From Psammoneis japonica (taxonomy: Eukaryota): 64,000 nucleotides of DNA. This document shows positions 1,391 to 41,095 of the stretch, one piece after another. How positions within the stretch are numbered: position 1 is the first letter of the stretch; each line of letters opens with the position of its first letter. The translations under genes and the position numbers were made by a program. The notes beneath the pieces were generated by a model. It ran no database searches. It was not told where the DNA came from and saw only the letters and a list, made by a program, of their open reading frames with translations. The stretch is from assembly GCA_008632985.1 (NCBI GenBank), contig QPGO01000267.1, forward strand, positions 1 to 64,000, read 5' to 3'.

Positions 1391-1737
1391 TGTTGAATGG
1401 ACAAGTCAATGTCACCAAAAGGGAATCACACAAGGTCTCCTGCACTGCTTGTCACACTTGTCCTGGCTGCTCAGGCAGCTGTGGGTTTGGCTTGGCATCA
1501 ATGTCAACTCTGCAACCACCATGATGCAGGTGTCTCTTAAAGCCGATCAACAATCATGTAAAAACCAGATGATTCACTCCAAAGAGTGAGAGCGAAACAC
1601 ACATTCAATCAACATGGATGAGATTGTTGAGCACAAAGAAATGTTCTTCCAATCCACATCAGAGATCAAAGATCTCCACTTGATGCACACAGGTCACCTC
1701 ATGTGATGTCCAGGTCTCTCATCTCATTGTTCCAACA
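1391..1737 (-). repeat. Copia 3' LTR
   Basis: Aligns end to end with 6710-7060 (tgttgaa...tccaaca). Confidence 0.95.
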
Positions 1738-3129
1738 CACTCCTGCTGCTCACATTGATGGTCCATCCAATTGCTCCCTGGCTTCGTAACAGCACTCAGG
1801 TTTGGCTCAGCTTTCAGGCACAATCTCACTTGGGCCTGCTCTGACCTCTGTGGGCATGTCACCAATTTCATCAAAGTCAAGCATTTCATCAAATGCATTT
1901 GTGATGTGACTCACTTGGTCCACAAACTTCTTCACACAGGTGTGGCAAATGCTCTCACACACTCTCTTGTCCAATGGCCCCAATTCAGCAATTGCCTTGG
2001 CAATCCACTCATCAACTCTCCACTGCTGCAGGCAACTCTTGCAACTCCAATGTTGTTCTGGCTTTGCTTTGATGATGTGGCAATGGAAGAATTGTGCTGT
2101 CTTCAAAGCATCATGCACAACTCCACTGTTGTCTGTCAACAATGCACATTCCAGCTGCAAGACATCATCACCAGGGCCACATGCCAACTCCATGAGAGGG
2201 CCACATGTTCCTCTTGAATGCATGCTGCAGGTGTGGGACAACTCTTGTTGTTGAGTGTTCACTTGGTTGTTCCACATCCTCTTTGTCAAGGGCCAGCCAC
2301 AATTTGTTCCCTCTTGATCCCACAATCACATCTTTGCTGCATGCATTGGAAATGCACTGACCATCATTCCTGTGACAACAATGATGTCCATGGATGATGG
2401 TGCTCTCCACAATGATTTCCCAGCACTGCTGGGTCTTGCATGCATTGTCTGCTTCCTTGCACTGGCATCCTGTTCATTGCCAAACTCCCTTCCTCCATCA
2501 TTGAGCAGATCATCAGTGTGGCGGCAGACAGCAGACACACACACAGGTGGACCTCTCTGGTCCACTCTTTCACCCTGTGAGATGGATTGGACATCACATC
2601 AAGTCTCTTGTTCAACAGCTTGTGTGCCATCTCACTTCAAATTCTTTTTCACATTTGGGTCACACACCACTGAAGAAATCCCAGACATGCTTTCCATTTT
2701 CCTCAAACTCCGGTGTCAGCAATCTTGTGTTGATTGCTTCATGCAAGACACATGAGGATCCATGGGTGTTGAAGCAACCACCCTTGATGCACATTTGTCA
2801 TGTTCCTCCAGCACCTTCTGGCAATTGCATCACAACACCTTGCACCTTTCTTCTTCTTGAAGATTCATCAACAACTTTTCATGCTTCTCCCAGTGTCCTC
2901 TTGGCCACTGTTGCATCAGCACATTGGTTGATGTCATTCCATCACCAACATTTGCTGGGGCATCAAAGATGCAAGGTGTTTGCATCAATGTCATGGTTCA
3001 TCCAAATGAAGTGTGGTGTGCACCACTGCACCAACCACTTGTTTCAGGGATCTTTCACCCACATGCATCAGAAATTCTCATCTGATGTTGTGAACAGCTT
3101 GCGCAGCAATCGTGCTTGCCTTCCATCCA

Positions 3130-6100
3130 ACAGCCCACAATGGCTCACTTGAACTTTCAGAACTTCTCACCCTGTGATGGCTCAGTCGTGAAGTCCACTG
3201 TCATTCTTTCATCTGTTGGGCAGCACTGTGCTCTCAGGCTGCCCTTCTCAAACTGATTTGCAACAAAAAACATCAGATGGCAAGTGCCCCAGACTGTTTT
3301 CCAGCACTCTTGCACCCATTGGTCTCAAGAGGGACATGGCACTCTTGCTGTCCTGACGTGGGACATTCTTGTCAATTGGGTGCCCTTGTTGGTGTTTCAC
3401 AAACAGTGTGGTCCACAGGACCACAGTCACAATGTTGTCAACTCTGATGAGTTCAGCTTCAGTGCTGCTTCAGGTGTTTGGTTTCTATCTCTTGGACATG
3501 GCCTGTGCATGGCTCCTTCACCCATCATCACAATGCCTCCAGTGTGGCTCTCATGTCTGGTGCACCATGATTGATGTGTCCACACACCACACTTGACAAT
3601 TGAAAGGTCTTTTGCACTCAGTGCAGCAATTTTGTTCCTTGTGCAGTTCAGGCACATGACACATCACACTGGCTTCCCCCAATCCTTGTTGGTTGGTTCC
3701 ATCACTCACATGCATGATGCTTCAATTGCAGGGTGCATGTCCATTTGACCTCTCTTGGACAGAAGTGGCCCTTTGGCCACCCACACATGGAAGAACTGTG
3801 CTTTGTCTGTCCACAACCTTGTGCCATCTGTGTCAAAGAGTTTCTCTTTTGATGGCATCATGCCAGCATCAGCAGTGCTCTTGACCCTCTCTGGAGCCTG
3901 TTTGATCATCTTGTGAACACACTTGATTGCATCAATCTTGACCTTGCTTTTCTTGCTGAAGTCCAGGGTCATCCCTGGACAGTCGTGTCTCTTTCCTCAC
4001 TTGGTCACAACAATTTCTCCATGCTGGCTTCTGCACATCTTGCCAAGCCAGCTCAGGAATGTGTTGTTGACCTTGCGGTTCTTGTGGCTTGACAACAAGT
4101 TGTCCATGTGGAATCTAATTGTGCCATCTGTCGTTGACTTTTCAATTGGCAATGCACGGATTGCATGGGTTGAACTTGAGCACAATTTTTTCCAGGTCTT
4201 TGCAAAATTGTTTGTGCCACAGCAGTGCTGCAATCAGCATGCCAGGTGTTGCTCAAACCACCTGGACGTGGCGGACTCTCTTCCTCTTTTCCGTGACCAC
4301 ATGTGGTCCATTTGGGTTGGGATTGTTGCTTGCTGGCATGTTGACCAACATTCCTGTGATCTTCATCATGATCCAGTCTTCTCCCTTCTCAGGCTCCAGC
4401 ACCTGGGTTTGGATGAAGGCATTCAGTGCATTGGTGCTCATCACATTGTGGTGTTCATTGGCATCAATGATGGCTGTCATCATTGCTCCTTTAAAAGTGA
4501 TGCCATTGGATTTGCTGATGTGCCCTTGTCTGGCCATTCTCTGGTCGGTTTTCCATTGCAGACCATTTGGCCTCTCACTGGGCCATCTTGTTTTTTGGTG
4601 AGGATCATTGAGGCTGCCAGAGCTCTCTTCCTCTCAGTTGGAGACATGTCCTTGATCAACATCAGTGCAAAGCACACCCTGTTGTGCAGTCATTTCACTT
4701 CTTTCTGTGATGCTTCATGTCCTTCTTGTTGGCCAAATGCCTTGAGGCCTTCATGCAGCAGGTGTTGTTTTGGGCAAGTGAGATGCCTTCTCCCCATTGG
4801 AGTCGGTCATCAGTCTCTCACATAAATTGCACTGTGACCATGCCTGACTCAATGTCATGTTCCATGTCCTGTTCTGGGTTGGGACTCACATTCACTCATG
4901 GATGGTGACAGCATTCAAGATTGCTTTGTCTGCACTTCTCCTCTTCTGTGTCTGCCACTCCTGTGTATTGCTCTTTTGTGTCTTGTTCTGATTCTTTGTG
5001 TCTTTGGTGATGTGTCACTGCACTGCATGCTGTTCTGCTTCTCACAGTTGAACATTCTTTGTGGGATTGGTTTCATTCAGAGCATCATCCTCATCCTCTT
5101 GACTGCTGTTGCCATCTTCTTGACTGCTGTCATCCTCACAATTGGCAACTGTGTTCTCATGCCGCTGATCTGAACTGAACCTTTTGTTGGCTGGTGCATC
5201 TTGGGCTTCATTGCACTCTTCATCTGAGTCTTCTTTGCACTCTTCTTTTTTGCTTTCTTCATCACTTTTTTGTTCTTTGTTGTTGCTTTTGCTTTTGCTG
5301 TCACTTTCTTTGCACTCCATTCCTTGAGTCCAATCAGTGTTGCTCAGGTTGTCTTTGCATTCCCCAAAAATTTGAGCACGTTAATCCCCTGGGCAATGGC
5401 CATTTTCTTGACAGCTCATGTGGCCACATTGGTCAGTGGGATCTTGATGCACTTGCAGGGGTTCAACAGTTTCCCATGTGTGAGTTCACAGTGCAATGTC
5501 TGCCCTTCAGAATGTCACATTGTGGTTGTGAGCATGTGGTGTCTGTGCCACAAGCTTCCACAGCATTTGTGACTTCTGTGGTTCTGTGTGGGACAGGACA
5601 AATTTTCCAAAGGAGCACCCAACATGCTTGTCACAACAGTCTAGATTTCATCTTTGCATGATTGCACACATGGACTGCACGTGTCCAAAATTCCCTCTTT
5701 CTGCAGGTGCACATTCAACATGACAGTGTTCTTGACAATGGCAGCCATGCTTGCACATCATCTTGGGCATTGTCTTTTTTGTGGCACATGGTGCGCTGTT
5801 GCTTGAGCTTGTTCTTTCACCATTTGGATGCTCTGCTCAACTTCCAGAATGTGGTCCTTGGCATTTGTGGATGTTGGCTCCAGGTTGTTCATGCCATTGG
5901 CAACTTCTGCCAACATGTCCTTGAACTCAACATTGCATTCAATGAAGTCAATCTTGAATGCAGCCATGCTGTGCTGTCACAGGATCATGTCCAGTGCATT
6001 GCACACACATCATCATGATTCTTGGACTTTAGTCTCACACTGGATCTGCACTTGATCATCTTGTCCATTGCATGCAGGAGCTCAACTCCGCATGCTTCCA

Positions 6101-6624
6101 TGACTCAGGATTGCCTTGCAGTCTTTGCTTCATCTGCTTGGCACAGCAATTGTCCAAGATCTTGGCAAACATGGCAGTTTTGTCATCCTTGAACTGTTCA
6201 ACCTCATCAAGGCAATCTCACATTTTCCTTTGAACAGCACATCATTCTCTCTGTCTTTGCACTCTTTCTCTCTCAGCTTTTCTTGGCAGTCTGTTGCATT
6301 GGTGTCTGGCATGACCACCATCAAAGCATTTGATGCAGCTTCTTGTGTGAAATCCTTGCACCCCACATCCTCAATGGATCTTGCTGAGTGCACTCCCTGC
6401 TCACACTCCTTGTGAATGCACTGAGTGATCTTCTTGTTTGCTTCTTCAAACATTGCATTGCAGGAGTTGCTGTTCAGTGACAAAGGATGAAACTTCACCT
6501 CAGCCTGAAAGTGATTTTTGTCATTGGGCCTCTTGTTGTTTGTAGACCTGTGCCTTCTGCCACCTCTTCCACCTTGACCTCCATGGTTTTGATGGGTTCC
6601 TCTGCCACCTCTTCTCCCACTCAT
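3130..6624 (-). pseudogene. Copia gag-pol relic (frameshifted, internally deleted)
   Basis: Gly/Arg-rich gag start at 6624. Integrase core HILEVEQSIQMVKEQ (5758-5967). RT motifs ERKRAL..KQDGPVRGQMVCNGKPTREW, NAFIQT and IRFHMDNLLSSH. RNase H motifs SHTGG and QDSKSA. No protease/GAG-pre-integrase region recognised between gag and IN. Confidence 0.9.
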
Positions 6625-6709
6625 GATGTGGGCATTCTCTCAATCCAATGAGGCAGCAGTCTCACAGCAAACAAACACCAACTCAGTGCTCCTGACTCTT
6701 TGGAGCAAA

Positions 6710-7060
6710 TGTTGAACTGACAAGTCAATGTCGCCAAAAGGGAACCCCACAAGGCATCCTGTGCTGCTTGTTGCACTTGTCCTGGCTGCTTTGACAACTG
6801 TGGTTTGCCTTGGCATCAATGTAAACTCTGCAACTGCCATGTTGCAAGCATCTCTTGACACCAATCAACAACCACACGCAAAAAGCAGATGATTTGCTCC
6901 AAAGAGTGAGAACAAAATGCACACATTCAATTGACATGGATGAGATTGTTGAACATGAAGAAATGCTCTTCTGATCCACATCAGAGATCAAAGATCTCTG
7001 CTTCAATGCATCCAGGTCACCTCACATGATGCCCGGGTCTCTCATCTTGTTGGTCCAACA
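6710..7060 (-). repeat. Copia 5' LTR
   Basis: Aligns end to end with 1391-1737. Confidence 0.95.
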
Positions 7061-9769
7061 CCCCCTCTCTCCAAAGCTTCTGGCCCAGTTGAAGTGGCTC
7101 ACTTTGCCAAAAACCTGTTTCTTGGTTGTCTCTGTCAATTTGCCTGCAAGCCAAACTGGCTCCCATCAATGGCAGATCAACAATGGCAGATCATGGGGTC
7201 AACTCCAGCAAGCATGACAACAAATGTGGGGGCCATGCTTTTCATCCACAGCACCAGACTTGCAACAGCACCAGATTCAGTGCAAAAGAAGCTTCTGGCG
7301 GTTTTGCAAATTGTCCTCCAAAGAGTGCTGTGACCAGATGATGGCATGCGACATTGTCAACTCATCTGTGCCTGGCATTGGATTTGACTGCTTGTTGAGC
7401 AAAGAAAAAATTGCCAGTTGGTGGCAAGAATCAGATTGAGGGGTCCAGGTGGTTGCTGCTTTTGATGTGTTTGCAGCTCATGGCAAGGCATTTTTGGCTG
7501 AGAGAACAAAAGTTAGCTTCTGGCATTTGCTGAGAAGATGTGCGCCCAGTTGTTTTCATCATCTGCGAAATTCCTTTGTGACATGCACACAACATTGCCC
7601 TGATGAAAGCTGGGCCTCCTCTTTCAACCAGACATGAAGTCATGCTGGACTTCAGATTTGTGCAAAAATGAGAGACTTGATGAGGAGAGAGGTGCACTTG
7701 GTTCAAGAACAATGGAAATGAGGGTGGCACAAGCTGGGAAATTCTTTGATGCAATCAAGAAGTGGGTGCGCACACTTGTTGCAGCTCAACAACAGAAAGA
7801 ATTGGATGTGCACACTTGCTTGTTGCAGATCAAAAACAGCCTGAGGGCAGAAGTGTGGAAGGCCAGAGGTGTGGCATCATCAATGAAGACCTTTTGGGCT
7901 TTGACAGCACAAAGGACACCACCCAGAGGTGACCAACTGCAGCTCATGTTCAAAGTTGAGCATGCGTCAAACAAAAGTGACTCAGCAAGTGTTGCCAGCA
8001 TGATGGCAAACCCTGCTGCTTCAACTTGAGGAACAAGCTCCAAGATGACAAGGACTGTGACAATCAGGGCAAGAGCAACTTCCAGCAACATCATTTTGGT
8101 TTGCTGTGGCTTTTGCCACATTGTTGCAACTTGGAACACCATGCACACAATGCCCTTCCACCACACAAGGCAAGACAGCTTGCTGTGTTTGGCTGCAAAT
8201 GTTGCAGGTTACAATGAGATGAACTGTGCTGTTGTTGCACTGGTTGCCATCCTGCTGGACAAAGGAAAAATGTGCCAGATTTGTGCAAAATCCTGTGTGA
8301 GTTTCTCATCTTTCAACTTGGTGATTTTTGCAGGAGGGTTGCACAAAAGGTTTTTTGGAGGGGGGGGGGGGGGGGGGGTGTCAGGCAATTTTCCAGGGAT
8401 GACAAAAATGACTGCATTTTCTTTCCTCTGTGCTTTCCAATTGCTGGCTTCTTTGACAGCACCAGCTCTCATTGCAAGGTGCTCTTTGCTGTCAGATTCA
8501 GCTCAACAAAGCCCAGTTTTCTGCCTCTGCAGCCTGCTGCCAGGCAACAGGAAGATTGCTCAGCTTGGCCAATTTGCTTGATGCTTGTTTCTTCCTCTGC
8601 AAGTCATTCAAGCAGCACCAAAGCTTTGTTGGATGCAACCAACAAACCAGAGTTGGGGGAAGTCCCATCTGTCAAGAGAACACAACCTCTTGGGTCACTC
8701 TGTAAAGTTGTTCCACCTTTTGAGCAGGATGCAGCCACCCAATCAAGGAAACATGATTGTTTGGAAAGGTGCTGCCAACGATGTTCTCTGACCAGAAAGC
8801 AAGTGTCTTGGGATGTGCGGGTGACCATTCTGAGAAAGTTGCACCCCAGCAGTCATCTGCGCTCTTGTGTTGTTTTCAAACTGTGCTTGGCAGTGCATCT
8901 GACACAGTGCAATTGGGGCCAAAGGTGCGAGATCTGCCTTCTGACTGGAGCATTTGTTGGAGTGCAAAAGTTGAGGCACAAAGGTGGCTGATGGAAACAC
9001 CCAATGAAGAGCACACCATCTTTCAAAAATTGGCCAACTCATTTGTTGTGCAACAATGAACATTTCAAAGACACTGGTGGACCTGCTGCTGGATGGTGGG
9101 AGGGCGACCAAGTCATTCTCTTGGAGTGGCATCATCAACTCTTGGAAGCTGTGGAAGCAAAATTGCCTGCCACACTTTGGCGCTGGCTCAGAGTGCTCCC
9201 TGAAAGTGCCACCCACCCTTCCAAGAGCATGTGGAGGGGGGTGGGATTGGCAGGAGGCATGTTCAGGACCTTGGGTGGAGATCTGACAATCACTGTGTCA
9301 CAAGCTGAGAGGGACAAGATGGAGGCTGTGGTCAGAGAGCTTGGCCTGTGCAAGAGCTGTTCATTGAATGGGCACAATCCCAGTCTTCAAGTTCAAGGGT
9401 CGTGAGAGGAAGAGCGAGGTTTTCTGGCAGAACATGAAATTCACACTGAACACCCGGCGATGTGGAGCAATTTGCTTCTCCTTTCCCATGACATCCAGCG
9501 GTGATTCGAATCGGTGTCATGGACTTGACGCATTTCACGGCGATCTTGTGCCGAAAAGCGTCATGATTCAGAATGAGCATTGCACACACGAAAGATTTTA
9601 CGTGATGATGTGAAACATGCTTTGTTGCCACAGAACGTTTTTTCCAATGCGCGATGAGAACAGCAGGAGCGAGTGAGAACCTGTCGTGATGGGAAGCTGT
9701 GAAAAGAGTTGCACAAAAACAAAAGAGCAACAAACGCACCTGAATTGTGCAAAAAAAAAAACCATGACA

Positions 9770-10626
9770 ATGTCATCCCCATGGGATGAAAGATGTCCAC
9801 CTGGTTGGTTCTGTTTCGGCCGTTTGCGGCTGCAAGGATTGAGAACAGAGCCACCTTGTGGAGCCGCATGTCTTGCCAGAGAAGCCTGCCTCTTAATTCT
9901 CATTTCTGACTTGGTGTGCATTGAGTTCCACACCATTTCCATCTCAGCCTTAAGCCCGTTCACATCTTCAAAGGCCGGAGGGATGAAAGCCCCAGTTTCG
10001 TGGTGGCGCTTTCATGAAGCCACAGAATGATTGTGCGACCCGACCATTCCTCCAGCAGTCGAGACCATCGCCTTGGAATGGGAGAAAGAAGATGTGTCCA
10101 GATGGTTGTCCCACCCAAATTGCTCAATGTGAAGTCGGGCCACCGCTTCCTCTCTTGTCTGACTTCTTCCAACAAAATTCTCCAGATTGGAAATGTTGGC
10201 AGCTCGTGGCCCTGAAATGATGTTGATGATGAGACCGCCGCTTTGAGGATCAGCGCAATGACACAATTGATCAATTGCATCAAAATCACTCAGATGAGGC
10301 ATCGAGATGTAAACTGTCGAATTGACCTCTGCCTTGTCAAGAAGATGCAGAAAGACAACAAAGGGGTGGCGATCGTGGGCATGTGACTCTCCTGCCAGTT
10401 CCTCCCCTTCTGGGTGTCGCAGACAAGTGGAAAGAAGGAAGACTTTGTCGGTGTGCAGCGGTTGCACGGGTTCGGCTTCTCCCAAGTTTGCCCAACTCTG
10501 GTCGACAAAATGCCCGTCGCTGACCCAAACAACTCTCTGCTGCTCCATGATTTCATGTTCATGGTTGCACCCGTCGTTAACTTCTTCGATCGGCCCAGCA
10601 GTCTCGCTCATGGTGCCATGCGCCAT
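9770..10626 (-). pseudogene. Hypothetical protein gene, TA-mutated
   Basis: ATG-initiated 204-aa ORF with protein-like composition, apparently continued by the 9598-9963 ORF. TA is lost but CG is retained. No family recognised. Confidence 0.45.
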
Positions 10627-11541
10627 TGGTCGTGTTTCGTGTTATCACCATCATCAGCTTGTTTCATTGACCACTCAGTGGTTGGTGATTGCAGACTTTT
10701 TCGTGTCGGTCCGGCAGTCGGGCAGTCGGGGGGTCGGGCAGTCGGGTTGTCCGTCTGAATTTGAAAGTGTGTCCCTTGGATTTTGGAACGGGTATGGGTT
10801 GTTTAGTAAAGATGAATTCTTCGGATTCGTAGAATGATCATTGAGGACATGAGAGGTCGTGGGGACATCCTAAAAAATCGATAAATTCCCTACGACGGGT
10901 ACGTGGCACGGTTTTTCAGGAGAGCTCGAAAGTTCTGAAAAATTGGGATTGCCGGCGTGGCATGTTCAAAAATGTATTCAGTTATATACAAAGATAATTT
11001 ATCGTGAATTCTACACGAAAAAGTCATATTGGGGAAAACATATCGAACAATAAGTGAGTTTGTGCGATGCGCTATTATGGCGATAAATTGGAAAAAAAGA
11101 GTGTCCGTGCACCTCGCTACAGCCCCAAAAATGGCATGAGACATCAAACACAACGGTCATCCGCGTCACCGGTGCGGTGGCCACGCCACTCAGCCCCGGC
11201 GGTGGGGCCCTACGTACGTACCGGTACAGGCAATACAGCATGCAAGTACACCCACACCCAGAAAGAAAGACAAGTGGTCAATGCTATGCTCCCCGCAGGC
11301 CTGGTCTTTTTCCTTTTTCACATGATGATGCGATGCGCGATGCGATCGAGCGATAGTCTAGATGTACTGTACCAGGTGATGTCTGTACGTCGCCTCTCGT
11401 CAACAATCCGAAAAGCACAACAGGCGAACTGTCATCACCAAACCCAGAACCGCAAAACAGCAAACTCAAAACAGCCACAGCACGCACAATCTCAAATCTG
11501 AAATCGTCGCCAACAGCAACAGAACAACAGAACTGAGAACC

Positions 11542-12170
11542 ATGGCGACGCCATGCCCGACTTCTGCATCCAGTATGACCTCAACCTTACCCAAATACGC
11601 GCAAACGGCCATGCCAATCAAAGAGTGTACGAATTCATCGGGACGTACCTCAGAAATGCAAACTGCCAACCCTATCAGCAATCCTGTTAGCGCATCGACA
11701 ACGCACCCGGAGGTCCAGGATTCCATGCCTCCATGTTACCGTACTATTCGCAAACGCAGTCGAAGCAAGATTCGGAGCTGGGGTCTTCCAACATCTCCAC
11801 TATGAACAACGGTACAACATCGTTACTATCCGCTGACGACTTTTTCGACCCTTCCTTCACCTTTGTGGAGACTGAAACACACGCCAAACTCTTGGACGCC
11901 ATTCATCGGGGGAATAAGTGGCAACAGGACTTGATTGATGTTCATGGGTTCACCGAGGCGGAATCCTGCGAGTGCTTTAGCCGTGCTGGAAAATACTTAA
12001 ATTCGGAAGAGTTTCCAGAGGACGCAGTAATCCCAAAGCTATTTCCGCATGCCAAGGAAGGATGGATTATTCTCAAAGATGTCGACCGTCTTGGAAAGGC
12101 GCACCCCAAGGAGCTCTCGGACCTAGGACGGCGTGCCTTTGCTAAAGGAAAGCCAATGGGGACTTTCTAA
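11542..12170 (+). CDS. Hypothetical protein (start uncertain: 11542 with a frameshift, or 11802)
   Basis: The ORF from MNNGTTSLL... has globular-protein composition. An upstream Ser/Thr/Pro-rich ORF overlaps it. Confidence 0.45.
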
Positions 12171-12446
12171 TAGATTCATCACGAGGGAGACGACATTGAA
12201 TGCTAGTGACTTTGTGCTTCGTGAGAGCACCAGCGGTACCTTGTGAATTAGTGTTCTCGCCTACCGTAACCACAGCAGTAGAGAAAGAGCAGACTTGATT
12301 CCATTGTATAATGCATGTGGCTGTACTGTCACTGCAAATGTCACTTGCAACCACATTGTTGTTGCAGTGAATACATATATTTGAATCGAATCAGAGTCAA
12401 AACTTTATGCGACACGTCATGATAACTGTCACTGTGAATACTCTCA

Positions 12447-12860
12447 TTGTCTTGGGCAGTGCAGACGTGGTCGTTTCTACCAGTTCTCTACGGAACGCCA
12501 TACTCAAATGCTACTGCTCGATTATTGGGAGTCAAGATGAAAGGCCGTGCTCTTTACTTGGGACCGCGAACGTACGACTGGCCTTACATTACACTTGGTG
12601 ACCGGACCATTGTCGACTACGGAACATGGATCTCTGGTCATGCAGCAGTGCAACAAGAAATGACAATTGGGCCTGTCATCCTGTCAGGTGTCATCCATGA
12701 GGGGAGCAGCATGTGTGTGGGTGCAACAATTGTAGCCAAGGAAACTGGCCCCGCCAAGCGCGTTGTCGATTTGTCTATGCCCTCAATTGAAAAGCAACAC
12801 GATTCGGAGATAACTTACCCTGAAGAAGATGATAATTGTGATCAAGACGTTCCTGTCTAG
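12447..12860 (+). pseudogene. Fragment resembling the C-terminal domain of Pls/PosA-type membrane NRPS
   Basis: Motif LYGTP.....RLLGVK..G...L.....D...ITLGDRTIV......SGH......TIGPV. No ATG start or upstream A/T domains seen. Confidence 0.55.
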
Positions 12861-13125
12861 ATCGACTGGAATCGCTCTCGGTTTGAGATTGATAGCTCAC
12901 TTTAAGTTTTCCGGAATAATTTCCAAACCAGCATCGCTTTCCCGGGATCTGAAAGGATGTACTTTCTCCTCTCCCCGGAGAATCTATCACCAGTTTGCTT
13001 TCGTGTGTGGCACACGACGAGCGACAGCGGGCTGCAACTTTTCTAGTTGACTTATGAAATCCTAAAGTAAAAGATAAACACGCAAGAAACTAAATTTCAA
13101 ACACTACAGCTCGGCGAAATCGGAC

Positions 13126-14081
13126 TCAGTACCACCTCCTCCTTTTCTTGTAACTAGAACCGCTCCACATTGGCTGATACGTGCTTGTGTCCCTCACAGG
13201 AGAGAGACCCTGTAGCCGACCCAAGTTTGTGTACCCTTCCCGGTTAGCATCCTTAGATTCCGAGCTTTGTTGCCACGGTTGGCGGCAGTTGGGACAGGTG
13301 GGTTGGCTCTGTTGTTGCTGCTGAAGCCATCGTCGAATACAGTCTTCATGAAAGTTGGTACCGCACATGGCGCGACAAAACGTCAACCCACCCTGTCTCA
13401 TTTCGTCAAAGCAAATGGGACAGTCCGCGGCAGCATCGAGTGACTTGCGTTGTACACCCGTAGTGTCGTCCTTGTCCTCGTCCTTCTTGGCGAGACCGGC
13501 GGCATACGTAGCACGCACTTGGCTGTTTGCCATGACACCTCCTGTTTGCCGCTGCGCCATGGTTGCAAAGATTTCTTTCAATTCACTTGTCAGCAAAGCT
13601 GCTTGATAAATCACGTGAGAGTCCGAGTCGAGTCCCATAACTTTGAGAAATACAAACAAAACGTGCTTGCACAAGTTGCCCTTTTCGTGATCTGGACAGG
13701 TGCAGGACAGCAAATGACCCACGTGTACATTGTACACATTCCCCGTCGAGCCCAACACAACAAAGTCACACTCGATTCCATTCTTGATTTCGCCACGCTC
13801 TACCAGATACAGACGCTGCGTCTTTGCTCGATCAATGCGAGCACGTGTCTTTTGAGAAACCGTCGTGCGCGTCTTGCGAAGCCGCTTTTCTTTTTTTGCA
13901 GCAGGGCGCTTTCGATCGGGAGAAGAACAGCGGAATGCGCTACATCAACAGAAAGGATACCACAAGCTTGATTGTATGCCACACGTAAGGCTTCAGTCGA
14001 TCCGACTGCTGGGAGTCCTCGTGCCTTGAGGGCTGCCTGAAGTTCCTTTCTACTCATTGATTCACCGTCAGGACCATTCAT
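13126..14081 (-). CDS. SAP + SWIM zinc finger + RING finger protein (ZSWIM2/MEKK1-like E3 module)
   Basis: SAP-like MSRKELQAALKARGLPAVGS, then RIDRAKTQRLYL, VLGSTGNVY, SWIM CTCPD...CKH and RING CPIC...C...CGTNFHEDC...CPNCR. One frameshift near 13890-13950. Confidence 0.85.
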
Positions 14082-14597
14082 TTTTCCGACTTGTGTTGTC
14101 TAATAGAGAGTGTCTTTCGTGCACTTGTGCAGCGATAAAGCTTGTTTTCACAGGTAAGACTTTGCACAAAAGCTTCAGTTTGTTGTCTTTGCTGTCATCG
14201 TTTTGTTTGCGTGCTTCACCAGAGTTGGGGTTGTGGTTCGCGCGCGTCGCGCGTTGCGGGTTGTTTCGTTTGTTAGTTTGTCTTTGTTCTTATGCTACTC
14301 GGCATGACGTTCTCATGCGATCCCGCCGGCCGTGGCATTCAAATTATAGACAAATTCGAAAAATTGTGAGCCAATCAAATCACGGTGCTGACGCAGTTTA
14401 TTTAACAACTTTGCTTCACAAAGTGCGGGCAGTCTTGCGAAAACTGCCTCCCGCCCCACCCACAATCAACCAATCAACCAACCCCCCTCCCCCTCGGCAA
14501 GAGCAACGAGGCTGTCTCTGTTCACTGTTTCCTTCTGCTGTGTTATTGGCCAAGTTGGTTGACACCGTAAGCCATAAGTTACCACATCAAATCAACA

Positions 14598-16196
14598 ATG
14601 TGGCTTTCCCCAGCACTCTCGACGCTCCTCCTCTTGTTATTGGCTGCTCCGCATAAATCAAATGCTCAGGAGGGTTTGAAGTACAATGAGGTTCAAATGA
14701 AGAGCTCACATAATTCTTATGAACGCCGTGAAAGCATCATGGATCAATTGCTATACCACGCGCAACGCAGTGTTGAGTACGATTGTCACCCTGCTGCAGC
14801 TGCAGGAAGCTTTGGAGTCTATCATGATGCAGGCTACTTCCAGACGTATAGCAGCCTGCAGACACTCAACGATGGCGTTCGCACTCTGCAAGAGTTTCAC
14901 GAAATCATGCCGAATCACCACGTGGTGACCATGTGGGTCGATCTCAAGGTGGAGCTTGGTACGACGCACACGGCCAAAGATTTTGATGATACGATTGGGC
15001 AATTGCCGCTCTGGATTCCCAGTGATGCGGCTGCCGATCAAAGCACGATCAAGGCTGGGATTGATGCGTACGGATGGCCCGAATTGGAAGAGTTGCGTGG
15101 CAAGTTTATTTGGGTCATTACATCTGGAACGGATTCGTATTGCATGTCGGATGCGGACTGCGTTGCCCGTAATGCCTTTGTGGCTGCGAGATCCGCAAAG
15201 TCCGCAGAGGAAGTTGGGATTGTTTCTTACAAGGTCTTTTACAATCAAGCTTCAACCTATGATTTCGTGGGCCCGGCTATTCAAGAGGCGGGTTACATTG
15301 GTCGTATCTATGATCTTTCTGACATTGATAGCCAGGAGAAGTGGGACAATGCCATCAAGAACAAGTATCAGCATATTACCACTGACAAAATCAACTTTCA
15401 CCGCGATCGCTTCAGCAAATCGCACAATGCATATGGATATCCTTTTTTGGCCATGAACAAGTCGGTGGACGTTTCCGAATTTAAACCAAACGAGGGAAAC
15501 ATGATGTTCATGACGGCCGACAATGGTGACGCATGGGGACGGTTTGACGATGCAAACATTGCCGTTTTGGTCGACGACACTGTGGATGAATGGGTCGAGT
15601 ATACCGCCCAAGTGAGTCTCGTTAATTCACATTGCCAGAAGTTTGCCAAGGCTGGAATCATGGTTCGGCAGGAAAGCCCGGACTATCCCATTGGAGCTGG
15701 GCAGTACTTTTCCGTCATGAGGACTTGCAACAACTTTCTCCGTGTGCAGTATCGAGAGGTGCCCTACCTGTATACCACCGAAAAAGTTGTCAACTTCATC
15801 GCCAGCCCACTTGATGGCATTGAAAATGCCAAGCGCACGTCTTTGAAACTCCGCTACAAGTACGACGGCAACAACACTATTGCTGAGGGTTACTTCAAGT
15901 ACGAGGGATCCGACGTGGACTTTTTCATCGGCAGTCATACATTTCCGGATATCCGATTGGAGTATCACGGATTGTTTGCCAGTTCCCATTACTGGGGAGG
16001 TAACGAGGACGGCACGGACTATAAGGTACTCTTTGTCGATGCCCGGCGCAACAACGAGACTCTGACGACGTCATCCTTTACAGAAAAGTATGGAGGAGAA
16101 GAATTCATGTTTGATGATGGCTGGGACAACCCACGGCCTACATTTCTTCCTGCGCGCACCTTGAAGAGCCTAAGAGGTGAAAGTAAGAGAGAATGA
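14598..16196 (+). CDS. Secreted PI-PLC-like phosphodiesterase with a C-terminal beta-sandwich domain
   Basis: 532-aa intronless ORF with a signal peptide. PLC-like YNEVQMKSSHNSY...RSVEYDCH...VYH, WPELEELRGKFI and HITTD. AKAGIMVR motif in the C-terminal half. Confidence 0.85.
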   Translation: MWLSPALSTLLLLLLAAPHKSNAQEGLKYNEVQMKSSHNSYERRESIMDQLLYHAQRSVEYDCHPAAAAGSFGVYHDAGYFQTYSSLQTLNDGVRTLQEFHEIMPNHHVVTMWVDLKVELGTTHTAKDFDDTIGQLPLWIPSDAAADQSTIKAGIDAYGWPELEELRGKFIWVITSGTDSYCMSDADCVARNAFVAARSAKSAEEVGIVSYKVFYNQASTYDFVGPAIQEAGYIGRIYDLSDIDSQEKWDNAIKNKYQHITTDKINFHRDRFSKSHNAYGYPFLAMNKSVDVSEFKPNEGNMMFMTADNGDAWGRFDDANIAVLVDDTVDEWVEYTAQVSLVNSHCQKFAKAGIMVRQESPDYPIGAGQYFSVMRTCNNFLRVQYREVPYLYTTEKVVNFIASPLDGIENAKRTSLKLRYKYDGNNTIAEGYFKYEGSDVDFFIGSHTFPDIRLEYHGLFASSHYWGGNEDGTDYKVLFVDARRNNETLTTSSFTEKYGGEEFMFDDGWDNPRPTFLPARTLKSLRGESKRE

Positions 16197-16648
16197 GAGG
16201 TGTGCACATGATGTTGTTGATGTAAGTTTTGTGGTCTGGACTGCATGTTACTCTATGAAATAATCTTTAATAAGTACAGCAACCGATGGGTCTTGCAGGC
16301 AACCTCGTTTCAAGACGTTGCCTCTCTAGCCAGGCCTTGGGCCCTACTCTAGGCTTTACTCTCTTGACTACCGGTACATACTGTAGGGCCCTAGAGTGTG
16401 GCAAATCCTTGCCTACTATTCTGAGCTACCGGTAGCTCTACTGTACTACTACTCTCTATCGGGAGTAGGGCCTCTAGCTAGTAGCTAGCTAGAGAGTAGA
16501 GAGGAGCCATACGCACTCTCCCATCGCTCGTTCTGTGCTGTACCGGTGGAGTCCATCCCAAAACAAGACCCAGCACAAATTAAGACCCGCCGTGGGTAGC
16601 AGCACACAAAAGCGCGTAGAATTTTCTTTTGGTCGAAAGAATTTGAGA

Positions 16649-16704
16649 GGGGGTTGCATGAAAAATCGAAATTTTCATTTTCCCCTGTTTTTCACGTGTT
16701 TTCA
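16649..16704 (+). repeat. Left inverted repeat of the Harbinger element
   Basis: gttgcatgaaaaatcgaaattttcattttcccctgtttttc is matched exactly, in reverse complement, within 20388-20442. Confidence 0.95.
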
Positions 16705-17179
16705 AACATTTTGACTGAAGAAAAGTCGTCGTGTCGAGAAAGGGGGGCACAACTAATGTCGGTCGTCCATCATCTCGAGCATGCACTGGATGGCACCACG
16801 TGAGTGTGAGTCAGAGAGGGGGCAGCCAAATGTCGCCTTGTGACGTGCGCATCAGAAGCTCGCTGCTCGCGCCCCTGGCTTGAAGACGTCAGTGCTCTCG
16901 TCTCAATTGGCCACGCTCATCATTCGACCCACCAACGAGCTGACGTGCTGGGTGGGAGACATCATTGTTGTCATCACATCTGGCGGATTCAGCAGCAGCC
17001 TCAGTCATTGTAACTTTTGATGCTGAGACCGAGCTGCTGGACAAAGTTTTGCTGTTTTGCTTGTGCATCGCGAAACCCAACGAAAATTTGTTGCAGACAA
17101 GACAAACTGGCTCTCTTGCAGCTGTGACCAAAGAAATGTCACAATGAATGTTGCAAAATGTCCTAATTTCTCAATGGGT

Positions 17180-18247
17180 TCCCATTCATCTGAGCACTCC
17201 ACTTCAAAGGGTGTGCATCCCATCACAATGGAAAGCTGTGTGATGTTCGCCACTGCTTGGAAGACAAGGTGATGTGTCAATCGATCATGACGATGCGTTC
17301 TTGTCATCATTTGGAAGCGCTTGAACCAACCATTGACAGCTTCGTGGCGGGCGCGAGCGACAGTCTTCATGCACTGGCCGGCATTGCGCAGGCCGGTCGG
17401 GGCCACACAACACTGGCGTCCGTCACTGCATGCCCCATCAGCCAAGCAAAACTCTCCATCTTGAAGTTCACAATTGATCGCCTCTCGTGCTACACTCAAA
17501 TCAGGAATGCCAGCTGGGCAGGGGCCATTCACCCAAACTGTCCAACCTGTCTGAATGCATGCGGCGATTTCGCACCTGAGCCCTGCACCGTTGAATTTGT
17601 GCGAGTGCCAGATGGGGTCGAACGGCGATGGTTCGTTGATGCGATGGTCAGTGCCGTCCACCGTCACCTTGCACACACTGCCACTGTCATCCATGAACCT
17701 GTTCTCCCAATCAATCTGTGATGAAATTGTGGTGAATCAAATGTCAGTGCATTGATTTTCAAAGAGAAGTTGGAGTCATGGTGCGCACCAAGTTCAAATT
17801 CACAATTAGCGCCATCCCAACCCACACCCATTTTCTCAACGTATCCTCGTGCATGCCACCGCAGATTCTAGCCATCATGGTTTCAGTGTCACACAGTTTC
17901 AGAAAACAAAGTGTGCATGACAAATGAGTGGGTGGAAATCCGCGTGGGATGTTGCCATCATCTTCAAGAAGGCCCCACAACTCACACACTGCGTCTCGCG
18001 GAGAGCAGAAGCACGAGGCAAATCTGCGGTTCCAAATCCGTTGTGACCTCATTGGCCTCTGGATGACTGTCCCCGCAAGACAATCTGCTGTGGCTTTGGG
18101 CAGGCGCATTTGCATGGTGAGTGACACAGACGTGTGTTGCGCGCACGATGTTTTGTGTTGCATGCCAAAAAGATTGCTGCTGCGCCAGTTCCGTGCAGCA
18201 GTGTTTTTGTTGCCGCAGGTGGATTGATGGCCGGGTGGGGTTTTCAC
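17180..18247 (-). pseudogene. PIF/Harbinger (DDE_Tnp_4-type) transposase, two exons
   Basis: Motifs VDGTD..I.EP, W(H)SHKFNGAGLR(C)EIA, WVNGP, LADG and RARHEAVN. N-terminal exon ...FLKL(C)DTE...TLRKWVW. Intron about 17720-17785. Confidence 0.9.
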
Positions 18248-19062
18248 TCGTTTCCAACATCTGACAACAAGGTTTTGATGTTGGGCCTTTTAGCGAGATT
18301 CCCTTCGGGAACGCTTTTGGCGCGGTTTCGGAGCGCTTTTGGTGCGGTCCCGGAACGGTGGAAACACGGGAATGATGAAATGCCTGTTTTGTCGAATGGC
18401 ATTTCCGTGTTGGAGCCATTGGCGGTTGCCACAGATGTGGTTTAGCGCCAAACAATGCTGGCAGTTACAACAAACCCTTGCAGCTCAACTTGTGGCCACT
18501 GCAAATCAAAATTGTTGAGACTCCCAACAGCCGTTCTTTTTCTTAGAGAAAATAGAAACCTGTTTTGACGGGTGCACCTTTTTGCAATGAATCCATCTAA
18601 TCTGTTAAACTTTTACACTGTTGTGCCATGCTCAAACAGTTCTGACAACAGCGCGCTAATTGCGGTGCATCACATGTCTCATCGGCAGATTGAGAGGCTC
18701 CAAAGTTTGATTTCCGCACGAATCAGTGCAATCGAGAACGTTCTCGGAACAGTTTTGGAACGGTTTTGGAACGCTTTTGGAGTGGCATGCAAGGGAATCT
18801 TGAGCTCCAACACTTCACAACAGTTTCCCCCGACAGGCCTTTTTTTGGTTTTGGCGGTTGCAGCAATTTCAAATTTGCCGGGACTTGTGTGTGTGGGATT
18901 GACTGTCCCACACAAAGAGAGAGTTGAGACGGTCGTGAACAATTCAAATCGGAGTTTGGGATTTGATGCGAACCTTGCCACAGTGCAGCGAGCAACACGG
19001 CATTCAGAGGATTTGCAGCTTGCCTCATCACAAAATTGAGAACAGTGACCAACACACACACG

Positions 19063-20090
19063 ATGGTGCAAATGAACACAAGGAGCAAGTCAGTGCTTGG
19101 CGCTGACTTGAAGCCGCCTCCCGCCTTTCGAAAAAACTCGCCCGACTGGATGCTGCTCAGGGATCTCCTGTTGCAAAAAAGGGTCAATCCTGGAGCGTCA
19201 CCAAAGGAGGTTCAGTCTGTGCGTGCAGAGTTTTTGAAGTGTCCTCTTGCCAAATTTCGCACTCAGCTGCACAAGCTGAGGAAAGAAACTGGTTTCAACC
19301 TGCGTCAACGAAGCGCTGATGACAGCACTGCACCACCGGCAGATGATGGCACTGGTGGAAGCAAGTGTCGCCACATGCTGCACTTTGTCAAATGAAACAG
19401 AATGCACTCTCATGTTGCTCTTTTTTTCTCTTGACTGTTGTCCACTTGTTTCAAAAGGGGAAGACCTTGACATGGATGAGGACGAGCTCTCAGCCGATGT
19501 CGGCCTGCCGTCAGCCAAGGAAACTGGCATTTTTGCAGCTGTCGCCCCCGCTGCTTTGGACCCCCCAGCATTTGAGGACGACCAGACATTCAAGCCCATG
19601 GTTTTGCAGGCGACCTGCAAGGATTCTGTCAACAAGACAGACCATGTGGTGCTGGTGATTGCAGCTCCCTCAGGAGCATGCACTGAGGACCTTTCTAGCT
19701 TCAAGCTCACGGTGACGGGTGGTGGTTGGTTTTTACAGTGCACCTCCGAGTGGCCGGGTCACAGCATGGGCATGGACTCACTCCATGCTGTGCTGGTGGA
19801 GGAGGCACAATCCCAAGGAGACCAAGAGCTCAGGGATGTGCACAAGCGCCTGGGGGCACTTTCGCATCAGTTGTCCTCCATGAGGTTGTTGGACAGCGAT
19901 GTTTTGGCGTCAACAGCCGCTGTTCCTTTGCCCATCAAAGTGTCGAAAAAGATTGACAAAAGGCCCATCTTTTGGGGGGCAAGGATGGTTCAAGAATTGT
20001 GTGTGTTGACCTCAAAGCTGAGGACTCAACACACCGCTCCATGGAGAGCCCCAAGGTTGTGTTGATTGACGGCACCACTTGTGTGGAGAA
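19063..20090 (+). pseudogene. Harbinger second ORF (putative DNA-binding partner protein)
   Basis: Divergent from the transposase and inside the inverted repeats. Basic helical N-terminus, probable intron ~19360-19455 and a late frameshift. Confidence 0.6.
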
Positions 20091-20387
20091 GTGGGGTGTG
20101 CGGCGTTTCTTTTCATTTTGCACTGTTTTGGTTTTCACAGCAGCAACAAGGACAAGTGTGGCGGCTGTCATTGGAAACACCAGCAGTTTGGAACATTGGT
20201 TTGGTTGCATTGTTCTTACTTCTTAGCACAGCAGTGTCTTTACGTCTTAGTTTCAATCCACAAAACATCGTTGACAACAACACCGCGTAGCCTCCGCTGT
20301 TGGCTACATCGACACGAGTGCGGGCTGCTGCCTCGGCACCGCAGTCGGCAGCATCGGCTGTCGGCATGCGTGCTGTTCGCACGATCC

Positions 20388-20442
20388 TGAAAATGCGAGA
20401 AAAACAGGGGAAAATGAAAATTTCGATTTTTCATGCAACTCC
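20388..20442 (-). repeat. Right inverted repeat of the Harbinger element
   Basis: Near-exact reverse complement of 16649-16704. Confidence 0.95.
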
Positions 20443-20526
20443 GAGGCATCGCGTTCGAAAAAAAGAGCGCGACGAGAGCAGTCGATTGCCGCCCTTTTTA
20501 CCCCCCAGAGAAATCTTGGCCCTTGC

Positions 20527-21509
20527 CACCCCTGCGTCAGTGGAGAGTATGGTTGGTGATGTCATGGTGATGTATGCTCACGTCATGGCATTTTTATCTC
20601 GCGCACGTGTGCGCGGTTATTAGACTGTGTAGGTGTGTGTACGTGTGTGAGGTGTAAGTAGGATATACGTAGAATTACTACTGAGTGATTGACATGCCGT
20701 GGATTTTCCGCCGGTACACAATCTACGTGGTCTACATGGAACATAAATTTATGTTGGTCTCTGAGGCTATTACATATCATTGATTTTGCTAAGGCCTCTA
20801 ATATATGTATATACCAATTCAAAAGTCTGACAGAACACCCCGAAAGAACTCTGGAATCTGCATAAAAAAATTTCTATTTAACGGTGCGAACAGGGTCGCC
20901 CCGAAGCGCTTCTCAAAATATTTTCAGATTGGATACAGTAAAACATCTACTATTACCAAAACAGAGTTATTATCGGATAAATAGATCCCGTGGTCTTCGC
21001 GCGCAAACAACACGATAACGCACAACAACACCATGGCGAGAAACGCGAACGCCGTCCCCTCATCTACAAGCTGGGAATACGAGATACTATTGAAGTGGTT
21101 GGACAATATGTATGCGCTGTATTCATGGGTCAAGTTGGGTTTCTTCTCGATGCTTGTTGTTGCGTCATTTTACAACGTTTTGACCCACGCCGTGTTCTTT
21201 GCTTTGTTGCTTCTGCTCGCGCGCCACCAACAGCTCTTCCTGCAGGGTATGGCTAGTTGCACGGCTGCATCGAACCCAAACGTGCGCGACCAACTAGCCC
21301 TACCCCGGCTAACTCATATTTGTATAAATGTAAAGGCAATTACATTTGTACACAAATGCTAATAGTTGCAGGAAAAATCCTGAACCAGGAGATTACTTAT
21401 GCATATATGTGTATCCGCCTTAATACGAATATTCTCTTCTCAACGCATGTGATGACATCATCACACATCACACACAACCACATCCCATAGTGCCACTGAC
21501 GCAGGGGTG
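20527..21509. mobile_element. Non-autonomous TIR element (983 bp), not TA-depleted
   Basis: Perfect 17-bp TIR cacccctgcgtcagtgg (20527-20543 / 21493-21509), flanked by the direct repeat ggcccttgc (20518-20526, 21510-21518). Confidence 0.9.
21033..21362 (+). CDS. Small putative membrane protein carried by the 983-bp element
   Basis: 109-aa ATG ORF preceded by a CAA-rich leader (acaacaacaccATG), with two hydrophobic stretches. Confidence 0.4.
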   Translation: MARNANAVPSSTSWEYEILLKWLDNMYALYSWVKLGFFSMLVVASFYNVLTHAVFFALLLLLARHQQLFLQGMASCTAASNPNVRDQLALPRLTHICINVKAITFVHKC

Positions 21510-21909
21510 GGCCCTTGCGTGGCGCGGTCTAATCTCCAGTACTTAAATCACGTACCTTTCTACGTGGGTCTTAAATCACGACCTCTACTGCATCAGCCTC
21601 GGCTTGTCGGACATTTTGGTTCACGCGCTGAAACTCATAACTATGCGGAATTGTAAAAAAGTGAAGATTTTTTTATGACAAGTTCAATGTGATCTTTCAT
21701 ATACAGGCGCGTAATTCCGAAATGCGCGAACATTGTGGCGTCTGCATGGATGAAGATCTTAGATGGGTCTTAACATGTGATGGACTCTAAATACCGCGCG
21801 ATCAACAAAGCGCGATTGGCTGGCGATTGGCGATTTTGATCTTGCGAATTCACACCATCATACACCATGAGCGCTGCTGCTCTGCGTTTGAATCTTTTCC
21901 AGAGGAACC

Positions 21910-28065: not shown

Positions 28066-28240
28066 TGCAAGATCTAGCTTGAGATGACTTGATAAAAGTT
28101 GTGGGAGAACCGAGGAGAGACCCCATCATCGCTGATGCAGCCCAAACCTAACGGTTTCCCGCATGTCTGACATGTTGGTTAACATGCATGCACCAGAGAG
28201 GGCACACTCGGTCATAGAGTGAGTGCGCCTGTCTCATTCA
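28066..28240 (-). repeat. Gypsy 3' LTR
   Basis: Colinear with 33499-33673 and adjacent to the PPT. Confidence 0.97.
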
Positions 28241-28347
28241 CTCTTCCCCTCCATGGTGCAAGGAACACGTGCACCATTGGAACCACTTGACTAAAATTCA
28301 AACCCACTGGGCACGGAGAAGGGAACCCAGACATTGGGAAGAAACCC

Positions 28348-33190: not shown

Positions 33191-33498
33191 GCAATCAAAC
33201 AATCAACAATTCACAAGATGAACAAAACAAAGCATTCCCAATTGATCCACACAACGAGAACAATTGACAACCAAACAAGAACGAATTCAACAGCAGCAAC
33301 ACGAGCTTCAAGTTCAAATGAACGCTGCTCCAAATCGCCAATTTCACGAGCATGATTGCGCTGCGATTCTGATCAACTTCGAATGAAATTTTCTGCATGC
33401 GCTCGCAAACAGATTTTCTCTCTTCTCGACAACCCTCTTCGTGTTGTCATAAAACTGACAATGCAATGAACAAGCTGTGACAACGACTGTAATTGCAG

Positions 33499-33673
33499 TG
33501 CAAGATCTAGCTTGAGATGACTTGACAAAAGTTGTGGGAGAACCAAGGAGAGACCCCATCATTGCTGATGCAGCCCAAACCCAACGGTTTCCCATGTGTC
33601 CAATGCGCCAGTTAATGCGCATGTGTCAGAGAGGGCACACTCGGTCATAGAGTGCATGTGCCTGTCTCATTCA
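33499..33673 (-). repeat. Gypsy 5' LTR
   Basis: Colinear with 28066-28240. Confidence 0.97.
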
Positions 33674-40980: not shown

Positions 40981-41095
40981 GCGGGACCACACAATACAAG
41001 GGATCGAGTGCTCGAGGGGCGACCTCCATTTATCACTTCCATCCGACAACAGCACTTTACATAAGCCATCATTGGAGATCGAAGCCATCACCATC

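Follow-up and report, generated by a model that had tools for sequence, protein, structure and literature searches.

We describe the footprint of two mutational processes in a 64-kb stretch of DNA from Psammoneis japonica (positions 1 to 64,000 of contig QPGO01000267.1, assembly GCA_008632985.1; hereafter the window). The footprint is that of hypermutation of the dinucleotide TpA to TpG or CpA, laid over a slower decay of CpG on the same domains. We consider it probable (roughly 0.7) that two separate, context-specific transition processes have acted on a shared set of silenced DNA, most of it from mobile elements, in a diatom-like genome. The faster would be a DNA-level hypermutation that turns TpA into TpG or CpA (A:T to G:C) on either strand, site by site, most likely through enzymatic adenine deamination, the signature of which has been measured directly in Bigelowiella natans (Mettrop et al., bioRxiv 10.64898/2026.01.13.699255). 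The slower, by roughly ten-fold, would be a decay of CpG to TpG or CpA in the same domains, most likely by deamination of 5-methylcytosine, and would be complete in the oldest domains only. Since both processes end in TG or CA, old domains become DNA holding TG and CA only (observed over expected ratio, o/e, of about 2) with unchanged G+C.

Nested losses of TA and CG

The o/e ratios and per-kb counts of dinucleotides were taken for each domain and each background segment across the whole window, in which G+C is 47-48% throughout. The background consists of six segments (34,445 bp in total) with TA o/e of 0.52-0.65 and CG o/e of 0.94-1.03, corresponding to 41.4 TA, 54.4 CG and 144.9 TG+CA per kb; a mild under-representation of TA is thus general in the window. 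Five domains stand apart with a TA o/e of 0.03-0.13 (2-8 TA per kb): 1-10790, 16651-20216, 28261-35157, 39939-40994 and 57316-63038. The affected units are the following.

1-9400, no strand assigned: core of the first domain (D1), TA o/e 0.03, CG o/e 0.09, TG/CA o/e 1.8-2.0
9401-10790, minus strand: edge of D1, TA o/e 0.07, CG o/e 0.77, with a PLD-like (PLDc_2) gene copy at about 9814-10611
16651-20446, minus strand: PIF/Harbinger-type DNA transposon copy with 55-bp terminal inverted repeats
17008-17736, minus strand: DDE_Tnp_4 exon, with relatives down to E 1e-70
28066-33690, minus strand: Ty3/Gypsy long terminal repeat (LTR) retrotransposon copy with RVT_1, RT_RNaseH and RT_RNaseH_2 domains and an LTR pair
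28066-28260 and 33499-33690, minus strand: the Gypsy LTRs, a repeat pair
33691-35157, no strand assigned: relic beside the Gypsy element, TA o/e 0.08, CG o/e 0.31
39939-40994, no strand assigned: TA-poor island between two genes, TA o/e 0.05, CG o/e 0.45
57316-63038, no strand assigned: TA-poor domain D5

CG is nearly absent in two cores only, 1-9400 and the D5 core at 57966-62171 (TA and CG o/e of 0.03 and 0.09, and of 0.03 and 0.07, respectively), in agreement with the initial annotation of this DNA, which had reported both dinucleotides as nearly gone from 1-9400 and from the core of 57400-63100. Intermediate CG o/e values are found at 33691-35157 (0.31), at 39939-40994 (0.45) and in the right flank of D5 at 62172-63038 (0.31). 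CG is mostly kept at 9401-10790 (0.77), in the Harbinger body (16651-20216; TA o/e 0.08, CG o/e 0.67), in the Gypsy interior (28261-33498; TA o/e 0.08, CG o/e 0.69) and in the left flank of D5 at 57316-57965 (0.68). The further claim that 9400-10750, the Harbinger element and the Gypsy body retain CG while TA is nearly gone is borne out by these values (TA o/e 0.07-0.08, CG o/e 0.67-0.77). The range given for it, 9400-20200, is TA-poor at its ends but takes in 10791-16616, 5.8 kb of genic DNA with TA o/e 0.63 and CG o/e 0.94, and the Gypsy element named with it lies outside this range, at 28066-33690.

In every affected unit of about 1 kb or longer, some 81-95% of the expected TA is missing, and the o/e of AA/TT and of AT is close to background in the TA-poor domains. 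The Harbinger body holds 18 TA against 216 +/- 11.5 (minimum 181) in 1000 mononucleotide shuffles, and chance is thereby excluded. The loss of TA is restricted to discrete, bounded regions, with two classified elements and one gene copy among the five domains. Their borders are sharp: over a single 200-bp bin, TA counts drop from 12-22 to 0-1.

We then divided the window into 128 bins of 500 bp and scored a bin as low where TA o/e was < 0.25 or CG o/e < 0.35. Both dinucleotides were low in 32 bins and TA alone in 24, CG alone was low in none, and the remaining 72 were low in neither. TA o/e is bimodal over the 128 bins, while CG o/e within TA-poor bins is continuous from 0 to 1.09. The CG o/e of all nine TA-poor segments (0.07-0.77) lies below that of all six background segments (0.94-1.03). 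Thus, CG loss is nested inside TA loss, since every TA-poor domain has lost some CG and no bin is poor in CG only. The initial annotation had named tight co-variation of the two ratios as the outcome that would argue against uncoupled losses. Once computed, the Spearman coefficient is 0.74 overall, which reflects this nesting and not a fixed ratio, being 0.65 within TA-poor bins and 0.02 within normal bins. The two losses are therefore neither tightly proportional nor independent, and the residual correlation, together with the nesting, is compatible with two rates acting on the same targets.

Direction and strandedness of the change

TA and CG have both been converted to TG or CA by transitions, a conclusion backed by four independent lines of evidence. 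The gain in TG+CA equals the combined loss of TA and CG. Relative to background, domains that have lost both dinucleotides show changes per kb of -39 TA, -50 CG and +91 TG+CA; the corresponding figures are -36, -11 and +53 for Harbinger and -36, -13 and +49 for the Gypsy interior. G+C is 0.49-0.52 where TA alone is lost and 0.475 where both are lost. TA loss had been proposed not to be a by-product of CG decay, and this is upheld by the chemistry of the two changes (A:T to G:C at TpA, C:G to T:A at CpG).

Sister copies of the elements were compared using two runs, X1 and X2, which derive from one sample and one study; the word depth of X1 on unique DNA is about 55. Harbinger and Gypsy belong to multi-copy families, as their summed depths in X1 (745-1959 and 2530-2885, respectively; a summed depth is not a copy number) are far above the value for unique DNA. 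Copies in X1 differ by transitions at 1421 places and by transversions at 347. We examined the best-supported 40 of 1868 records of differing letters in other copies. In 11 of them, TA of the other copies stands against CA (6, in Harbinger) or TG (4 in Harbinger and 1 in Gypsy) in the window. The reverse direction occurs in 1 record, three pairs are TG/CA double differences, the window has TG or CA where the others have CG in 3, and the window retains CG in 2. Harbinger-like contigs of X2, from copies about 85% alike, likewise keep TA at sites mutated in the window copy.

Comparison of repeat pairs within the window gave a further view of the process. Self-BLAST revealed an LTR-like direct repeat pair in the D1 core (1391-1738 and 6710-7061, 82.7% identical), and the D1 core appears to be an old repeat-derived domain. 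CA in one copy faces TG in the other at 11 sites in this pair and at 6 sites in the Gypsy LTR pair, and differences of CG against TG or CA between LTRs are also present. Such doubles are expected where an ancestral TA or CG has been resolved independently in the two copies.

Consequences for coding sequence are seen in the PLD-like gene copy. An exhaustive protein search with the open reading frame (ORF) at 10015-10641 (minus strand) returned 52 relatives, none of them named, the best being P0361 (74% identity, E 1e-91); a PLDc_2 or PLD-like domain was found in 11 of the 12 relatives scanned. The copy at about 9814-10611 is colinear with all 265 residues of P0361; its only interruption is an in-frame TGA at 10012-10014, in place of an Arg of P0361. 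Seventeen replacements relative to P0361 are explained by TA to TG (9) or TA to CA (8), and six, including the stop, by CG to TG or CA. The eight Tyr of P0361 that align to ORF 10015-10641 are now His (5), Cys (2) and Phe (1), with additional Tyr to His or Cys changes in the downstream ORF. TG and CA outcomes are interleaved along the gene, and no strand-coordinated runs of TG or CA were seen among the 17 sites, which are too few for a firm test. TG and CA are about equally frequent in D1, D5 and Harbinger. The change therefore acts on both strands, site by site and without strand runs.

In the Gypsy copy, 11 conserved Tyr columns of the reverse transcriptase and RNase H regions, defined from 120 relatives, now hold Cys (6), His (3), Tyr (1) and Ala (1), the Ala column being a frame duplicate; Arg has become Cys twice and His twice. 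In the DDE_Tnp_4 exon all three conserved Tyr are Cys, and none of the 243 residues is Tyr. In four of the 120 public Gypsy proteins (P0125, P0130, P0165 and P0200), 3-5 of 6 conserved Tyr columns are themselves occupied by Cys or His, and Tyr is almost absent overall from P0125, P0130 and P0165; among 120 Harbinger relatives, the pattern recurs in one (P0325). A metagenome scan with the TA-mutated relative P0165 gave 78 loci, none of them TA-poor, and the contig of P0165 itself did not turn up among them. As all 78 metagenomic Gypsy relatives have a TA o/e of 0.42-1.08, low TA is not native to the Gypsy family; judged from such relatives and copies, neither the Gypsy nor the Harbinger family appears natively TA-poor.

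Rates, borders and flanking bases

The relative speed of the two losses was estimated as the ratio of -ln(surviving fraction) for TA over that for CG, with start densities taken as background. The ratio is 18.7 for the PLD unit, 10.3 for the left flank of D5, 9.5 for Harbinger and 7.5 for the Gypsy interior; it falls to 2-4 in the island, the relic and the right flank of D5, and to about 1 in the cores, where TA reaches a floor of about 2 per kb. The series fits a fast TA process that saturates while a slower CG process continues. TA loss is the faster by about 7-19 fold, since units that still have 75-89% of their expected CG have lost nearly all TA. The earlier proposal of a faster TA process is thereby supported. 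Independence of the two, which had been offered with it, holds in a chemical sense but not in place, given that none of the 128 bins combines low CG with normal TA.

It had also been suggested that TA loss overruns the edges of the domains in which CG decays. We did not find this to hold in general. CG density at 9401 changes in a step and not along a gradient, so the edge of D1 is a separate, less CG-decayed unit abutting an older one. For Harbinger and Gypsy, whose ends could be mapped, TA loss reaches no further than the element end, and in places ends about 200 bp short of it. Going inwards across the left end of Harbinger, the count drops from 13-22 to 1 TA per 200 bp, whereas 6 TA are kept in the ~230 bp next to the right end (20217-20446; Poisson p 0.001 against the interior density). 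The sequence directly outside the left end (16251-16500) has 30 TA in 250 bp, with many CTAG- and GTAC-type words, and this renders the border there especially sharp. Three sequence variants among the X1 contigs, at depths of 57-101, skip the 3.8-kb element by joining 16650 to about 20447; an empty-site form, or a paralogous empty site, is present in the same sample. Contigs of X2, a run labelled 'DNA?', skip 17779-17864 and 18115-18198 within Harbinger, both with splice-like GT..AG ends, and also 22518-22624, where 22518 is joined to 22624 within one contig.

A neighbouring element provides a natural control.

20526-21510 (985 bp), no strand assigned: element resembling a miniature inverted-repeat transposable element (MITE), with perfect 18-bp inverted ends and GCCCTTG on both flanks

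The MITE-like element escapes hypermutation, with TA o/e 0.96 and CG o/e 1.05. Summed word depth over and beside it is 1039-6898, the peak of the surveyed stretch, as compared to about 55 in unique DNA. Conversely, the relic beside the Gypsy element is single-copy by word depth (57 in bins 33877-35200; single-copy at 80% likeness), and one X1 contig spans 33873-35200, differing at 5 of 1328 letters. A high copy number today is thus not sufficient for TA loss, nor is it needed, as the high-copy MITE is spared and the single-copy relic is hit. The shortest affected unit is the island, at 1056 bp.

The bases flanking the 96 TA that survive in depleted domains were compared with the window background and with 19,171 TA sites of the 78 Gypsy relatives. 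Survivors are enriched for TTAA (ratio 5.9 against the window background, 3.6 against the Gypsy relatives) and for CTAA/TTAG (2.7 and 2.4), are depleted for ATAC/GTAT (0.23 and 0.23), and include neither ATAT (0 and 0) nor GTAC (0 and 0). The contexts differ strongly from both references (chi-square 112, p 7e-20, and 88, p 5e-15, respectively). Per-strand survival against background is 2.3 for TAA, 1.1 for TAG, 0.5 for TAC and 0.4 for TAT. These values suggest that the process prefers a pyrimidine after the A, which we treat as a lead, as some survivors may be newly made TA. A link of this +1 preference to the anticodon-loop contexts of ADAT and TadA enzymes was considered and dropped; the order T, C > G > A does not obviously match them.

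Explanations and known systems

Of the alternatives to two separate processes, the most serious is a single promiscuous DNA deaminase acting efficiently on A at TpA and inefficiently on C at CpG, so that methylation would not be needed for the loss of CG. The strict nesting of CG loss within TA loss would follow from such an enzyme, and the B. natans preprint cites reports of ADAT2 enzymes active on A as well as C in DNA (10.64898/2026.01.13.699255). We nevertheless regard it as improbable. Restriction to CpG is the classic mark of 5-methylcytosine deamination, transposons of diatoms bear DNMT5-dependent methylation according to PMC9998398, and the Gypsy LTRs, with more CG and less TA lost than in the interior, point to separate determinants.

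Only slightly less plausible is a change that begins on thymine. Modified thymines occur in other protists, and a thymine altered in this way at TpA, such as a hydroxymethyl-uracil-type base, could pair wrongly with G and so produce T to C. TpA is self-complementary, so T to C and A to G on opposite strands yield the same products, and the sister-copy, Gypsy, Harbinger and PLD-like results fit either equally well. Set against this, the sole experimental precedent was read by its authors as adenine deamination (10.64898/2026.01.13.699255).

ADAR-like A-to-I editing of transposon RNA, fixed through reverse transcription, would be in keeping with the 5' U preference of ADAR enzymes noted in the discussion of the preprint (10.64898/2026.01.13.699255) and with an excess of TG over CA on the Gypsy sense strand. 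However, a DNA transposon (Harbinger), the PLD-like gene copy and a single-copy relic are also hit; both strands are affected, with Tyr to His alongside Tyr to Cys and 8 TA to CA against 9 TA to TG; and other Harbinger copies differ at CA and TG sites alike. The changes are confined neither to A to G on the sense strand nor to retro-copied sequence. RNA editing is already contradicted, since a DNA transposon is hit and the pattern is two-stranded, and we consider it very unlikely.

An artefact of sequencing or assembly, whereby a base modification makes TA read as TG or CA, seems to us equally far-fetched. Both runs holding the stretch do come from one sample and one study. Yet the X1 contigs, at a depth of about 55, reproduce the TA-poor sequence at 33873-35200; sites mutated in the window's elements are read as TA in sister copies from the same reads; within LTR pairs, TG in one repeat lines up with CA in its partner; and P0125, P0130, P0165, P0200 and P0325, from other public sources, share the pattern of Tyr to Cys or His. 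The absence of any mutation process, the families being natively TA-poor or TA having been removed by selection, would draw on the mild TA shortage of the background (o/e 0.52-0.65) and is the least credible alternative, being already contradicted because TA is retained by sister copies from the same sample, conserved Tyr have been replaced and genes disrupted; TA o/e is moreover at least 0.42 in 78 of 78 relatives, and non-coding parts are hit equally.

Several points weigh against our preferred reading of two separate transition processes. The rate ratios are rough, given the assumption that elements started with TA and CG densities equal to background. The Gypsy LTRs are one real local decoupling of TA from CG, though on small numbers: TA o/e is 0.43 and 0.26 (0.08 in the interior) and CG o/e 0.47 and 0.33 (0.69 in the interior), and the two LTRs together hold 8 TA in 387 bp, whereas the interior has 5.0 per kb (Poisson p 0.0009). 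Such a ranking, with more TA and less CG kept than in the interior, is not expected from a pure two-rate clock. On the sense strand of the Gypsy interior TG outnumbers CA (586 to 431), which could be a partial strand bias or coding-strand composition alone. X1 and X2 come from one sample, perhaps the window's own, and as such do not confirm the sequence independently. The direction of change, its action on both strands without strand runs, the sharp borders, the nesting and the flanking-base effect were observed directly; the enzyme, the role of methylation and a targeting signal in chromatin state rather than copy number are what we infer from them.

A system of the same kind has so far been described in one 2026 preprint, on the chlorarachniophyte B. 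natans (10.64898/2026.01.13.699255). Of 302 nuclear mutations in mutation-accumulation lines of that alga, two integrated viral regions received 231; all but one of these (230) were A to G or T to C, and all GC-biased ones were on TpA. The process was confined to some of the lines, at a rate of about 6e-7 per site per generation, about 1000-fold above background. TpA-depleted coding sequences were enriched in DDE endonuclease and reverse-transcriptase domains, and an ADAT2-like deaminase was proposed as the agent (10.64898/2026.01.13.699255). The resemblance to the window is close: A to G and T to C transitions on both strands, restriction to TpA with TpG and CpA as products, discrete regions, and TpA depletion with enrichment of CpA+TpG as the long-term footprint are found here as in the account of B. 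natans.

There are also differences. Whereas the B. natans targets described in the preprint are giant-virus and virophage inserts, those of the window are transposons, a PLD-like gene copy and relics; the host here, judged by best named protein matches, is a diatom-like stramenopile. Both the diatom-like host and the transposon targets are new relative to that source. Depletion is saturated in the window (TA o/e 0.03-0.13), in contrast to a Rho TpA of 0.45 given for the nucleocytoplasmic large DNA virus region of B. natans. The B. natans rate was measured de novo, while ours is a footprint in standing sequence alone. A term search of the preprint's main text finds 'CpG', 'diatom' and 'trinucleotide' absent (10.64898/2026.01.13.699255); that text thus does not treat CpG decay or flanking-base context, and the borders at element ends and the MITE escape are described from the window. 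In the literature covered, which left subscription journals aside, we found no report of TpA loss in diatoms, and the preprint was the one description of the signature.

The second component resembles decay of methylated CpG elsewhere. Transposons of diatoms carry DNMT5a-dependent methylation (as described in PMC9998398), and CG to TG or CA changes are here concentrated in transposon DNA, giving Arg to Cys, Arg to His and Arg to stop. CpG decay alone explains the slower loss only and cannot create the loss of TA, which precedes it throughout the window.

With repeat-induced point mutation (RIP) of fungi, the process shares an irreversible, transition-only, dinucleotide-specific mode of action that destroys the coding capacity of mobile DNA in sharply bounded tracts. 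RIP is described as changing C to T preferentially at CpA, which would create TpA and lower G+C. The opposite is seen here: TpA is destroyed, CpA and TpG are enriched and G+C is kept or raised (0.475-0.52). Nor does the change follow present-day duplication, the repeated MITE being unaffected and a single-copy stretch affected. APOBEC and ADAR enzymes of animals similarly direct deaminase-type, context-dependent transitions against foreign nucleic acids. They act on single-stranded cDNA or RNA with strand asymmetry, whereas both strands of chromosomal DNA are changed here, those of a DNA transposon included, without strand runs.

A broader proposal, which we put forward tentatively and at less than even odds, is that TpA hypermutation may be a chromatin-guided, DNA-level defence (an 'inverse RIP') found across the stramenopiles, alveolates and Rhizaria, which would quickly and permanently disable any DNA in silenced domains, non-transposon genes such as the PLD-like copy included, would prefer TA followed by a pyrimidine, and would form a two-stage clock together with the decay of methylated CpG. 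If this is true, TA-free DNA would come first and DNA with TG and CA only second, and the order could date silencing events in such genomes. A saturated footprint on ordinary transposons of a diatom-like alga suggests that the process is widespread within one major group of marine primary producers. The borders at element ends, the escape of a short, high-copy MITE, the flanking-base preference and the fixed order relative to CpG decay are testable features, and they help to narrow down both the enzyme and its targeting signal.

Annotators should be aware that transposon relics of this type are invisible to protein searches. Of the 84 listed ORFs of at least 100 aa from TA-poor domains, 77 were scanned against Pfam. 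The 70 from D1, the relic, the island and D5 gave no credible hit, only sub-threshold matches at chance level: no Pfam domain was found in the 40 ORFs of D1 (1-10790), the 7 of the relic (33691-35157), the 3 of the island (39939-40994) or the 20 of D5. The 7 Harbinger ORFs gave nothing above chance besides DDE_Tnp_4. In a tblastn search of the whole window with 120 Gypsy relatives, matches were confined to 29005-30845, and D1 and D5 are therefore without recognisable Gypsy pol. A look-up of 9 proteins in protein clusters returned uninformative names ('hypothetical protein') only, and the Protein Atlas gave no taxonomic indication for LCAT. The Protein Atlas look-alikes of the PLD-like protein are of virus or phage origin and weak (135-142 shared features), and a search for the family in viral contigs gave 45 pattern matches, none of which was confirmed.

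Diatom affinity is apparent in the named matches, and the long, little-interrupted ORFs are in keeping with a diatom-like genome. The malonyl-CoA decarboxylase encoded in the window is closest to those of Asterionellopsis (56%) and Odontella (50%), the best named match of the Harbinger transposase is from Seminavis, and those of the Gypsy relatives are from Ditylum, Cylindrotheca and Epithemia. Poly-G runs occur at 8360-8378 (19 G) and 33789-33809 (21 G), each within an old TA-poor, CG-poor relic, and reads are seemingly cut at the second of these. At 54349-54949, TA-rich sequence with a normal dinucleotide content carries local direct repeats (173 bp at 83% identity; 48 bp at 92%).

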